Positions 7,315 through 14,657 of a stretch of DNA of 17,381 bases are shown piece after piece. Numbering within the stretch: the stretch's first letter is position 1; each line of letters starts with the position of its first letter. The position numbers and the translations under genes were made by a program. The notes beneath the pieces are model-generated. The model was given only the letters and a program-made list of their open reading frames with translations, made no database searches and was not told the origin of the DNA. Origin of the DNA: a virus; UHGV virus genome UHGV-0315696. One strand, 5' to 3'.

Positions 7315-8076
7315 ATGACACAGTTTCAACTTGCATTAATCGCTAGAGAAGTTGATGGAGAAGTCATCCATCTTCGCACCAAAGACGGATACATCAATGC
7401 CACCGCGATGTGCAAGTCTGCGGGGAAGCTACTTGCTGACTATACACGACTAAAAACAACACAAGATTTTTTTGATGAATTATCACGCGATATGGGGATT
7501 CCCATATCGGAGTTAATTCAATCATTTAAAGGCGGAAGAGCAGAGAATCAAGGGACTTGGGTTCATCCAGACATCGCAATTAATTTAGCTCAGTGGCTAT
7601 CTCCAAAATTTGCAGTGCAAGTATCGAGATGGGTGCGTGAGTGGATGTCAGGTGAAAGAGCGCCTGCCGAACTCCCTATCCACCTTAAGCGGTATATGAC
7701 AAACCGAGGCAGAGTTCCTCATACGCACTTTTCTATGCTTAATGAACTGACGTTTAACTTGGTTGCGCCACTTGAACAGGCCGGATATACGCTGCCAGAA
7801 AAAATGGTCCCTGATATTTCAGAGGGTAGGGTTTTCTCGCAATGGCTCCGTGACAACCGGGGGGTTGAGCCGAAGACATTCCCAACATATAACCATGAGT
7901 ACCCAGATGGCCGGACATTCCCGGTACGTCTATACCCAAACGAATATCTTGCAGATTTCAAACAACACTTCAACGAAGTGTGGCTGCCTCAGTACGCTCC
8001 TAAATATTTTGCTGAACGAGACCAAAGGGCATTGACGTTGATTGAGAAAATCATGCTACCTGACCTTGATTCCTAA
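7315..8076 (+). CDS. KilA-N domain protein in the rexA/rexB slot; candidate repressor-linked exclusion/abortive-infection protein (BstA-like?)
   Basis: 253 aa with AGGA SD. The N-terminal region (...GYINATAMCKSAGKLLADY...WVHPDIAINLAQWLSPKFAVQVSRWVREW) resembles the KilA-N fold from memory. Co-oriented with cI, 31 bp downstream, followed by a strong terminator and then OL. Confidence 0.6.
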   Translation: MTQFQLALIAREVDGEVIHLRTKDGYINATAMCKSAGKLLADYTRLKTTQDFFDELSRDMGIPISELIQSFKGGRAENQGTWVHPDIAINLAQWLSPKFAVQVSRWVREWMSGERAPAELPIHLKRYMTNRGRVPHTHFSMLNELTFNLVAPLEQAGYTLPEKMVPDISEGRVFSQWLRDNRGVEPKTFPTYNHEYPDGRTFPVRLYPNEYLADFKQHFNEVWLPQYAPKYFAERDQRALTLIEKIMLPDLDS

Positions 8077-8084
8077 ATGTTATT

Positions 8085-8110
8085 CCCGGCCACAGAGCCG
8101 GGTTTTCTTT
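8085..8110 (+). terminator. Rho-independent terminator ending the cI/KilA-N transcript
   Basis: CCCGGC-CACAGA-GCCGGG followed by TTTTCTTT. Confidence 0.7.
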
Positions 8111-8116
8111 GCCTCA

Positions 8117-8125
8117 CCCCCCCCC
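8117..8125. repeat. Homopolymeric C9 tract in the intergenic region
   Basis: Read directly (CACCCCCCCCCACC). Confidence 0.8.
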
Positions 8126-8264
8126 ACCTAAAGACACATAACCAAATGTATTTATTGAAAAATAAATAGATACAACTCACTAAACATCGCAATTCAGATC
8201 TCTCGATCACCTCCCAAGCCACTCAACCCTGCAAAAAATAAATCCATATAAAAAACATACAGAT

Positions 8265-8327
8265 AACCATCTGCGGTGATAAATTATCTCTGGCGGTGTT
8301 GACATAAATACCACTGGCGGTGATACT
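8265..8327 (+). promoter_or_regulatory. Left operator OL3 (8265..8281), OL2 (8285..8301), OL1 (8309..8325) with pL (-35 TTGACA 8299..8304, -10 GATACT 8322..8327)
   Basis: ACATACAGATAACCATCTGCGGTGATAAATTATCTCTGGCGGTGTTGACATAAATACCACTGGCGGTGATACT is identical to lambda OL/pL as I recall it. Transcription is rightward on the + strand toward N. Confidence 0.9.
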
Positions 8328-8395
8328 AAACACATCAGCAGGACGCACTACTCACCAGGGCGGTGAATATACAACGATTCAAATATGAATCTACG

Positions 8396-8410
8396 GCGCT
8401 GACAAAGCGC
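8396..8410 (+). promoter_or_regulatory. nutL boxB, P22 type (GCGCU-GACAA-AGCGC)
   Basis: Perfect 5-bp stem with a GACAA loop, about 70 nt downstream of the pL start and upstream of the N-like gene. It matches the P22 boxB as I recall it. No clear boxA upstream. A second hairpin CCAAAG-TGAA-CTTTGG follows at 8416..8431. Confidence 0.55.
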
Positions 8411-8575
8411 AATAACCAAAGTGAACTTTGGGGTGTGGTGAAGGGTTCATGGACGGGAATATGTCGCACGTAAAGCGGCGAGGCCTGCGGGACTATTGCC
8501 GAATTGAAGTAGGCCGAAACAGGTCGAAATGGGTCTCCCACCTACCACACCACCAAAGTTCATCAGGAGGTCTAT

Positions 8576-8959
8576 ATGACACGCAGAACTCAGTTCAAAG
8601 GCAATTCACGTTCTCGTCGTCGTGAGCGTTTAAAGGCAAAGGCATTAGCTAACGGCGTGCTGGCCCGCGAAGAAGCAATAAGTTCAGAAGTATTACACCG
8701 CCCTACTCTAAGCAGAGCGCAGATTCAGGCTAAAGGTACTCACGAAACGCCTGAGCGCATAGAAGACGCTAAGCCAATTAAGTTCATGGCACAGGACGTG
8801 ATCTGGCAACAGAAAGAATACAGACGCAATCTGGAGCGAGCGGCCATTGTGTACGCGAATGAGTTTGGACATAAGCAACCAGAAACTGGTGTATGTCTTC
8901 CAAACGTAGCCATTTACGCGGCAGGCTACCGGAAATCCAAACAACTGACGGCGAGGTGA
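8576..8959 (+). CDS. N: N-like transcription antiterminator (P22 gp24-like; N-terminal arginine-rich motif)
   Basis: 127 aa with AGGAGG SD. ARM-like N-terminus (NSRSRRRERLKAKA). The C-terminus ...LPNVAIYAAGYRKSKQLTAR parallels my recollection of the P22 N C-terminus. First gene of the pL operon after a boxB. Confidence 0.65.
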   Translation: MTRRTQFKGNSRSRRRERLKAKALANGVLAREEAISSEVLHRPTLSRAQIQAKGTHETPERIEDAKPIKFMAQDVIWQQKEYRRNLERAAIVYANEFGHKQPETGVCLPNVAIYAAGYRKSKQLTAR

Positions 8960-13573: not shown

Positions 13574-13866
13574 ATGCCTGGCTTATCCCCGATCGCATTG
13601 AAGAGCAGTCATGGGCACGACACTACCAGCAAATTGCCCGTGAAGAAACTGAAGCTGAGCTGGCAGACGACCTGGAAAAAGGTCTGCCCCAACACCTGTT
13701 TGAATCGCTATGCATCGATAATCTGCAACGTCACGGGGCCAGCAAAAAAGCTATTTCCCGTGCATTTGATGACGATGTCGATTTTCAGGAACGCATGGCA
13801 GAACACATCCGCTACATGGCTGAAACCATCGCCCGTCACCAAATTAATATTGATTCAGAGGTATAA
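13570..13866 (+). CDS. gam: Gam, host RecBCD inhibitor (short GamS-length form)
   Basis: 98 aa ([60 protein letters not shown]...), near-identical to the C-terminal 98 aa of lambda Gam from memory. Confidence 0.9.
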
Positions 13867-13871
13867 AACGG

Positions 13872-14657
13872 ATGAGTACAGCACTCGCAACGCTGGCAGG
13901 GAAGCTGGCTGAACGTGTCGGCATGGATTCTGTCGACCCACAGGAACTAATCACCACTCTTCGCCAGACGGCATTTAAAGGTGATGCCAGCGATGCGCAA
14001 TTTATCGCATTGTTGATCGTCGCCAACCAGTACGGCCTTAATCCCTGGACGAAAGAAATTTACGCCTTCCCTGACAAGCAGAACGGCATCGTTCCGGTGG
14101 TTGGCGTTGATGGCTGGTCCCGCATTATCAATGAAAACCAGCAGTTTGATGGCATGGACTTTGAGCAGGACAATGAGTCCTGTACATGCCGGATTTACCG
14201 CAAAGATCGCAATCACCCGATCTGCGTTACCGAGTGGATGGATGAATGTCGCCGCGCACCATTCAAAACCCGCGAAGGCAGAGAAATCACCGGACCGTGG
14301 CAGTCGCATCCCAAACGGATGTTACGGCACAAAGCCATGATTCAGTGTGCTCGCCTGGCCTTCGGATTTGCTGGCATCTATGACAAGGATGAAGCCGAGC
14401 GTATTGTCGAAAATACTGCATATACTACAGAACGTCAGCCGGAACACGACATCACCCCGGTTAACGAAGAAACCATGTCGGAAATTAACGCCCTTCTTAC
14501 TTCCATGGAAAAAACGTGGGATGACGACCTGTTGCCGCTCTGTTCCCAGATTTTTCGCCGCAACATTTACACATCTTCAGAACTAACACAGGCTGAAGCT
14601 GTGAAGGTTCTTGGATTCCTGAAACAGAAAGTCACAGAGCAGAAGGTAGCAGCATGA
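13872..14657 (+). CDS. bet: Bet (Red-beta) single-strand annealing recombinase
   Basis: 261 aa, near-identical to lambda Bet from memory ([66 protein letters not shown]...). Confidence 0.95.

Follow-up and report, generated by a model that had tools for sequence, protein, structure and literature searches.

BstA proteins, described by Owen et al. 2021 (PMC8585504), are encoded downstream of prophage repressors and cause abortive infection through a block of phage DNA replication, and the resident prophage neutralises its BstA through a cognate DNA element, aba. In BTP1, aba is 63 base pairs (bp) long, runs from -29 to +34 and has terminal CCCGCC direct repeats (PMC8585504). The validated BstAs are 41.7-48.4% identical to BstA-BTP1, and the discussion of the same paper itself draws the synteny of BstA with rexAB at the lambda site (PMC8585504). 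Here we analyse a 17,381-nucleotide (nt) stretch of DNA, UHGV virus genome UHGV-0315696, referred to as a whole as the window, in which a lambda-type cI repressor gene is followed by an open reading frame (ORF) of 253 amino acids (aa) that takes the place of rexA and rexB and contains a 22-bp palindrome. Table S1 of PMC8585504 includes Escherichia coli O178:H19 2012C-4431, in which we find a lambda cI 99.2% identical to that of the window, followed by a 301-aa canonical BstA (42% identical to BstA-BTP1); given its presence in that table, the literature already contains a lambda-immunity prophage whose rex slot holds a BstA. The table also has homologs of ~250 aa (PMC8585504). A BstA-type gene in this slot is ordinary for the field, and it is the palindrome that is the new result.

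Profile comparisons place the protein encoded by the ORF (7315..8076, + strand; ORF list, profile searches, BLASTP and hhalign) in the BstA superfamily, within which it belongs to a compact clade, distinct from the canonical BstAs, whose N-terminal domain is a canonical KilA-N (the short clade). A KilA-N-like N-terminus had been proposed in the initial annotation, which was made from the DNA letters and an ORF list, and Pfam bears this out: residues 13-112 (7351..7650, + strand) match the KilA-N (APSES-like) DNA-binding domain with an E value of 8.2e-27 and 93.6 bits, the cutoff being 23.8. Homology to the BstA C-terminal domain follows at residues 120-237 (7672..8025, + strand; PADLOC and BLASTP), which align with positions 149-271 of the PADLOC BstA hidden Markov model (HMM; E 2.5e-20). 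Residues 1-252 match PHROG 6287 ("BstA abortive infection system, replication inhibitor") with an E value of 1.8e-82, and BstA-BTP1 and two E. coli BstA-family homologs match the same group (1e-98 to 1e-150). BLASTP against BstA-BTP1 gives 29% identity over residues 133-251 (E 5e-15), and hhalign of a profile of 32 homologs against three canonical BstAs gives a probability of 98.2% (E 3e-14, 214 columns). The comparison with KilA-N and BstA profiles that the initial annotation had suggested is thus positive by Pfam, the PADLOC BstA HMM, PHROG 6287 and hhalign alike, and its phrase "short BstA-like variant" is the right description in view of these matches and of the position of the gene, with a defence function predicted by homology to the sister clade. 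KilA-N is the sole Pfam match of the full protein: residues 114-253 match nothing in Pfam, KilA-C, ANT and Bro-C being absent, and NCBIfam has no model naming the protein.

The window belongs to a lambdoid phage, and its immunity region is 99.9% identical to that of Escherichia phage PhiR5_2 (PV340546.1); full-text literature searches returned no paper on the biology of PhiR5_2 and none on later BstA/KilA-N work. The cI gene (6570..7283, + strand, 237 aa; ORF list), which we take to be the first gene on the lysogenic pRM/pRE transcript, matches lambda CI at 235 of 237 residues and is 96.5% identical in nucleotides to lambda 38255-37226. It is followed by a 31-nt spacer (7284..7314, + strand) with an AGGA Shine-Dalgarno sequence, in which a promoter and terminator scan found no promoter-like and no + strand terminator-like site, and then by the co-oriented 253-aa ORF, an arrangement first noted in the initial annotation and confirmed by the ORF list and the sequence. 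Homology to lambda is lost at 7284 (lambda 37226, one base after the cI stop) and regained at 8085 (lambda 35824, one base after the rexB stop, at the t_imm hairpin). These breakpoints delimit a cassette of 800 bp (7285..8084, + strand) that has been swapped exactly for the 1401 bp of lambda that carry rexA and rexB (35825-37225). The reported absence of rexA and rexB holds: no counterpart of this lambda interval was found in the window, and tblastn searches for RexA and RexB across its whole length gave nothing below E 0.5. The O178:H19 prophage, with a canonical bstA in the slot, has identical breakpoints (7284/8085) when compared with the window. The cI-ORF transcript is closed by an intrinsic terminator (8085..8111, + strand; terminator scan), the equivalent of lambda t_imm, whose hairpin (8085-8102, CCCGGC-CACAGA-GCCGGG, then TTTTCTTT) keeps the stem of the lambda hairpin after rexB and has an altered loop. 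This is the terminator that had been predicted after the ORF; the interval then given, ending at 8110, includes it, whereas the ORF itself stops at 8076.

We consider it likely that the gene encodes a BstA-family prophage defence protein that replaces RexAB; lysogens probably express it along with cI, and it probably causes abortive infection when heterologous phages enter. The BstA C-terminal domain and the placement directly after the repressor, co-oriented and with its own rho-independent terminator, are both found here. Given this position in the slot between cI and t_imm, production of the protein in lysogens from the pRM transcript that carries cI is most likely. In such a lysogen, the ORF would be transcribed together with cI, and by analogy with BstA-BTP1, BstA-Ec and BstA-Kp its product would act on a superinfecting phage by recognising its DNA during replication and blocking that replication, so that the infection would be aborted. 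The resident prophage would then need a cis-acting DNA element to exempt itself at induction.

The arrangement of repressor, gene and terminator recurs behind three other repressors. In E. coli, strains DY612 and H6 have cassettes of 94-97% nucleotide identity behind two unrelated repressors, and behind these non-lambda repressors the cassette retains a degenerate remnant of the lambda cI 3' end, ~30 nt long (CAGTGGCCAGAAGAGACGTTTGGGTGA; ~3941-4000 in both locus L008 and locus L009, corresponding to 7257-7284 in the window). This footprint of the cI 3' end in non-lambda contexts indicates that the cassette left a lambda-type immunity region. In E. coli H6 and H5 (locus L008, 4001-4762) the annotation splits the gene, which is 97.5% identical to that of the window, into two ORFs, and disruption has probably made it a pseudogene there. 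A Proteus phage carries a homolog with 80% protein identity behind its own cI, and a second E. coli variant (86% protein identity) lies in the nin region, beside hokD and on the opposite strand. Among 5426 complete E. coli genomes, 139 have the gene or a variant of it at or above ~77% nucleotide identity. The exact cI-ORF junction is present in 18 of the 5426, compared with 94 for cI-rexA and 10 for cI-canonical bstA; these junction counts are to be set among the ~1200-1300 E. coli genomes with a lambda-type cI 3' half. Selection on the gene is strongly purifying, with a nonsynonymous divergence (dN) of 0.002 and a synonymous divergence (dS) of 0.19 against DY612; for more distant homologs dN is 0.07-0.15 and synonymous sites are saturated.

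Several observations weigh against a prophage defence role of the BstA kind. BLASTP similarity to the validated BstAs is restricted to the C-terminal half (residues 128-251, 22-30% identity) and is not full-length: the N-terminal halves give no BLAST alignment, and the canonical BstAs give no Pfam KilA-N match. The C-terminal domain has no informative structural match or relative of solved structure, and no catalytic motif or fold was identified in it; literature searches found no experimental test of any member of the short clade. This clade comprises 2748 database proteins at E <= 1e-5, and 53-60% identity is retained in Proteobacteria, Verrucomicrobiota, Bacteroidota, Planctomycetota, Spirochaetia, Nitrospirota and the candidate phyla radiation (CPR) bacteria, which is unusually high for a defence protein; canonical BstAs are mutually 32-42% identical, compared with ~60% across phyla in the short clade. 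Of a set of 65 diverse genomes, just three have an S24 repressor as the upstream neighbour; aceK holds this position in eight and an IS1595-family transposase in six, so that membership of the family does not imply a place in a prophage immunity region. Finally, the layout of the BTP1 aba is not reproduced. No direct repeats of 6 nt or longer were found between 7230 and 7420 around the start codon, and positions -29 to -13 vary among loci that encode an identical protein. The aba elements of BstA-Ec and BstA-Kp are unmapped, and the BTP1 architecture is not a family-wide criterion. The scan for an internal DNA element that the initial annotation had proposed did yield one, a conserved palindrome, which is unlike the BTP1 aba.

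Within the 65-genome set, restriction or Abi genes occur occasionally near the homologs, and cross-reading the homolog and neighbour lists assigns the eight aceK cases to Stenotrophomonas loci. Distant homologs in Verrucomicrobiota, Bacteroidota, Alphaproteobacteria and CPR bacteria (loci L049, L055, L057, L060, L065, L070 and L087) have a co-oriented ORF of ~275-310 aa ending between -8 and 42 nt upstream. These ORFs are taken to be among the six IS1595/ISXO2-like transposase matches, which suggests that the gene travels as a passenger of insertion sequences (IS).

The palindrome, CGATATGGG-GATT-CCCATATCG (7488..7509), lies in the KilA-N coding region, encodes D-M-G-I-P-I-S, and is the sole inverted repeat of the gene with arms of at least 8 nt. 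It is a real, conserved nucleic-acid element, as seen in an inverted-repeat scan, in third-position conservation and in compensatory changes. Third-codon-position identity, scanned over homologs with saturated synonymous sites, rises from a background of 0.2-0.5 to a sharp peak of 0.8-1.0 at codons 51-70. In most homologs the palindrome reads CGATATGGGAATTCCCATATCG, from which the window differs by one central change, with loss of an EcoRI site. The peptide is encoded with GGG, CCC and ATA, which are rare codons in E. coli, and the RNA fold z-score of the region is -3.3. In a HMMER alignment to Mbp1 the seven residues D-M-G-I-P-I-S fall in a 7-residue gap. Distant homologs have other stems, and their peptide is altered to match: ETGIPVS (CGAAACGGGAATTCCCGTTTCG), DIGIPIS, DAGIPAS, DVGIPTS, SMGIPID, SAGIPAD and VMGIPIT. 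At least 7 of the 10 stem pairs are kept in 51 of 82 unique sequences, with 13 distinct perfect 10-bp stems. Compensation extends to synonymous sites, the third base of codon 6 being A where codon 1 is GAT and T where codon 1 is GAA; since this change is purely synonymous, selection at the protein level cannot explain the pattern. Over all 82 sequences 71% of cells pair, compared with 25-43% in slid registers, and the covariation score is 0.319, compared with at most 0.119 in slid registers and reached by none of 500 shuffles. RNAalifold, run on 51 sequences, recovered this hairpin alone, with compensatory changes in seven of nine pairs. Mismatches in the stem comprise 4 G.T and 14 A.C, that is, no G.U bias, so that a hairpin in the sense-strand RNA is not favoured.

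The palindrome is neither universal in the short clade nor confined to it. One clade, of peptide type AQTGLPEQQLIH and found in Stenotrophomonas, Oceanisphaera, Salinicola, Marinomonas, Shewanella and others, lacks it at equal peptide length, and no comparable inverted repeat was found in the three canonical bstA genes. KilA-N proteins with unrelated C-termini have a palindrome at the same codons, namely GCCGATATG-N8-CATATCGGC and CGATATCG-N6-CGATATCG in a Bacteroides LoVEphage (L421) and Planktothrix PaV-LD (L422), and nine of the ten pairs of the palindrome in Synechococcus S-SRP02 (L423). This indicates that the element belongs to the KilA-N coding sequence and not to the BstA C-terminal domain. 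Rfam has no family for the gene region or for a palindrome-rich region at locus L173, and a literature search found the palindrome sequence in no paper.

Four other candidate elements were rejected. The first 41 nt of the ORF contain a 7-bp inverted repeat, TCAACTT-N16-AAGTTGA (7326-7355), which shows one apparent compensatory change in a 78% variant and is lost in the Rouxiella, Hafnia, Providencia and Photorhabdus homologs; it was rejected as a codon coincidence. High identity of the first 20 coding nt to the Rouxiella homolog is not general, other homologs being different there. An outer helix extending the hairpin in single-sequence folds is unsupported by RNAalifold over the 51 sequences, the conserved stem being 9 bp, and for a second palindrome shortly downstream, GAATTAATTC, a manual tally found the first-codon bases of Leu and Ile/Val to be inconsistent.

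Copies of the palindrome also occur on their own in other phages. We sampled IMG/VR sites for the perfect 22-mer (n = 120), the variant of the window (n = 119) and the ETGIPVS type (n = 10). The perfect 22-mer stands alone in non-coding DNA at 104 of the 120 sites, in 14 sequence contexts. The commonest of these contexts, with 87 sites, is the stretch that separates hokD from a DUF551 gene in lambdoid nin regions; E. coli O157:H7 provides one example (locus L292, 2811-2832). Stand-alone copies make up 76 of the 119 sites for the window variant and 4 of the 10 for the ETGIPVS type. Those listed for the window variant mostly adjoin a rho-independent terminator, in many cases GGCCTC-TTCG-GAGGCC-TTTTT, and the one such locus that was examined closely is a nin-like region. 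Nearly all of these stand-alone loci (among IMG/VR L172-L291 and L293-L410) are without a KilA-N/BstA-like gene in the flanking DNA examined; PhiR5_2 has the in-gene copy only. In some phages, two or three different variants are packed into ~400 bp. Clustered palindromes with a GGGAATTCCC-type core were seen in locus L173 (5709-5734 and 6010-6067) and locus L225 (~13856-13920), examples being ATAAAAACGGGAATTCCCGTTTTTAT, GTCGGGATTCCGAC and the DMGIPIS-type 22-mer; the L173 palindromes sit beside a MUG113/T5orf172 gene, and the ORF adjoining a related 26-bp palindrome there, the neighbour of the MUG113/T5orf172 protein, has no Pfam match.

The hokD locus is found in three states: without a palindrome, with a stand-alone palindrome, and with the full gene containing the palindrome. 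In two palindrome-free E. coli loci (L424 at ~1332 and L425 at ~1327, compared with L178 at 2010-2031) homology stops a few bases from the left edge of the palindrome, and most of the E. coli alignments listed stop no more than ~30 bases upstream of it. The palindrome at this locus marks a mosaic junction. The stand-alone copy adjacent to hokD retains ~14 nt of gene-like flank.

Several roles are conceivable for the palindrome: it may serve self-immunity or recognition, form an RNA hairpin, or promote recombination. Under the BstA-type defence proposed above it is, speculatively, the DNA element in cis that the protein would most plausibly recognise. In a more specific form, which we judge rather unlikely, it would be an aba-equivalent cognate site of the clade's KilA-N domain, bound as a duplex or as an extruded hairpin, and the orphan copies would be immunity or decoy sites. 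Amplification of the palindrome on the replicating prophage would then switch off the prophage's own BstA-like protein, and the orphan copies would let other lambdoid prophages escape this defence. Site and protein would co-vary across phyla as a set of "specificities", because each arm encodes part of the binding domain. A possible, if doubtful, explanation is that the palindrome has no dedicated function, being a quasi-palindrome kept perfect by template-switch correction inside a BstA-like accessory (moron) gene, and that its stand-alone copies are leftovers of deletions ending at the hairpin. No stem pair consists of synonymous positions alone, so that correction between arms together with protein selection could freeze the sequence. 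The end of homology at or a few bases before the left edge, seen for the hokD-linked copy in many E. coli genomes, is a typical recombination end point, and the missing G.U bias and the gene-like flank next to hokD point the same way. However, such an explanation has to accommodate the persistence of the palindrome across phyla through at least 13 different perfect stems and in KilA-N genes with other C-termini, the exact 22-mers in at least 14 unrelated contexts, and the two or three variants within 400 bp in some phages; its loss from one clade at equal peptide length argues that it is not an unavoidable by-product.

Two further alternatives concern the protein itself. We regard it as unlikely that the gene encodes a KilA-N DNA-binding regulator for the phage's own development, such as an antirepressor, a transcription factor or a host-killing "Kil" protein, with the palindrome as its autoregulatory operator and with no role in anti-phage defence. 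The N-terminus does have the canonical KilA-N/APSES DNA-binding fold, it also matches PHROG 129 ("transcriptional regulator", E 8e-24), and depositors have labelled close homologs "DNA-binding protein" or "transcriptional regulator"; moreover, the palindromes at the same codons in the Bacteroides, Planktothrix and Synechococcus phages are tied to the DNA-binding domain. However, the C-terminal half is homologous to the BstA domain and not to KilA-C, ANT or Bro, and accessory genes expressed in lysogens typically occupy a moron slot of this kind, transcribed in lysogeny after cI and closed by its own terminator, which would be an awkward place for a lytic regulator or a killer. Lambdoid development can also do without the gene, because over 1000 E. 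coli genomes have rexAB, canonical bstA or other cargo in its place. It seems quite unlikely that the protein is a lysogen defence working differently from BstA, sensing a DNA structure or sequence, with a palindrome on the invading DNA, for example, as the trigger, not as an immunity element, and the C-terminal domain acting on it. Consistent with such sensing are the exact 22-mers lying between genes in many lambdoid prophages with no homolog of the gene nearby, as counted above, an N-terminal domain that differs from that of canonical BstA, and a clade far more conserved than canonical BstAs. Since the gene itself contains the site, self-targeting on induction would be predicted; the C-terminal domain offers no recognisable catalytic motif or fold for the action required of it, and in the published precedent the cis element of the bstA locus protects (PMC8585504).

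To the right of the cassette lie the OL3-OL2-OL1 operators and the pL promoter (8265..8327, + strand; lambda comparison and promoter scan), reading into an N-like gene (8576-8959). The initial annotation had called OL/pL identical to lambda, which is true of the operators, the OL1-OL3 block (8265-8325, 61 bp) being 100% identical, and does not extend to the wider stretch from 8085 to 8366, where identity is merely 88%. The pL hexamers, TTGACA-17-GATACT, were located by the promoter scan at 8299-8327. OR3 and OR2 have the lambda sequence, and an exact match to the lambda OR1 17-mer was not found in the window. The gene 3' of pL encodes a 127-aa protein with an Arg-rich N-terminus (MTRRTQFKGNSRSRRRERLKAK) that is not lambda N, and lambda nutL is absent from the region 8330-8575; together these indicate a mosaic joint directly to the right of the operators.

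Elsewhere in the window, a ~60-bp repeat is present in three copies (4839-4924, 5611-5673 and 5705-5763), two upstream of an O-like replication gene and one inside it. Between the two upstream copies is a perfect 16-bp tandem duplication (TTGGTGTGACTGCACA x2, 5667-5698). These repeats may be iterons or otherwise related to the origin, and because of them the peptide QPQQPEAD is repeated in a small ORF (5601-5819) and in the O-like protein. By the annotation of the corresponding part of PhiR5_2, the window also encodes a HigB/HigA toxin-antitoxin pair (~974-1502). The pair lies in the - strand early operon, where NinB and the replication genes flank it, and is itself transcribed from the + strand.

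With respect to BstA, the assignment proposed here would add a widespread clade of 2748 proteins to the family, and the slot between cI and t_imm is confirmed as a place where single-gene defences are exchanged. Of greater significance than the gene is the palindrome, which constrains a predicted defence gene at the nucleotide level within its protein-coding sequence, with compensatory changes at synonymous sites. If it is a self-immunity or recognition site, it would provide the first sequence-defined, portable handle on self/non-self discrimination of the BstA type, and carrying the immunity site alone would be a natural anti-defence strategy. If it is a recombinogenic hairpin, the palindrome would mark a junction of lambdoid module exchange.

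The closest described systems can be compared with this locus as follows. Like the ORF, the BstAs of BTP1, Ec and Kp are encoded directly after a repressor, on the same strand and with their own terminator, belong to PHROG 6287, and occupy the rexAB slot of lambdoid prophages, including those with lambda immunity. They differ in length (298-307 aa, compared with 253 aa), in lacking the canonical Pfam KilA-N N-terminus, and in the absence of the internal palindrome from the three canonical bstA genes; conversely, an aba of the BTP1 type, with CCCGCC repeats over the start codon, is not recognisable at the ORF. Lambda RexAB shares with the ORF the slot from the cI stop to t_imm, the presumed co-transcription with cI in lysogens, and the presumed general role of prophage-encoded abortive infection against superinfecting phages. 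There is no sequence or architectural relationship between the two, RexAB being a sensor and a membrane channel, whereas the ORF is predicted to encode a single soluble protein of DNA-binding type. In the KilA-N/APSES proteins, such as P1 KilA, the phage "Bro/KilA" regulators, yeast Mbp1 and Bqt4, the C-terminal partner of the DNA-binding domain is KilA-C, ANT or ankyrin repeats, and in the ORF protein it is a BstA domain. The BTP1 aba, which acts independently of protein-coding capacity, resembles the palindrome as a short DNA element within a bstA-type locus that is constrained at the nucleotide level. It is, however, a 63-bp element with direct repeats at -29 to +34, whereas the palindrome is 22 bp long and starts 174 nt into the ORF, and the palindrome, unlike aba, also turns up between genes as isolated copies and in KilA-N genes whose products have no BstA C-terminal domain.

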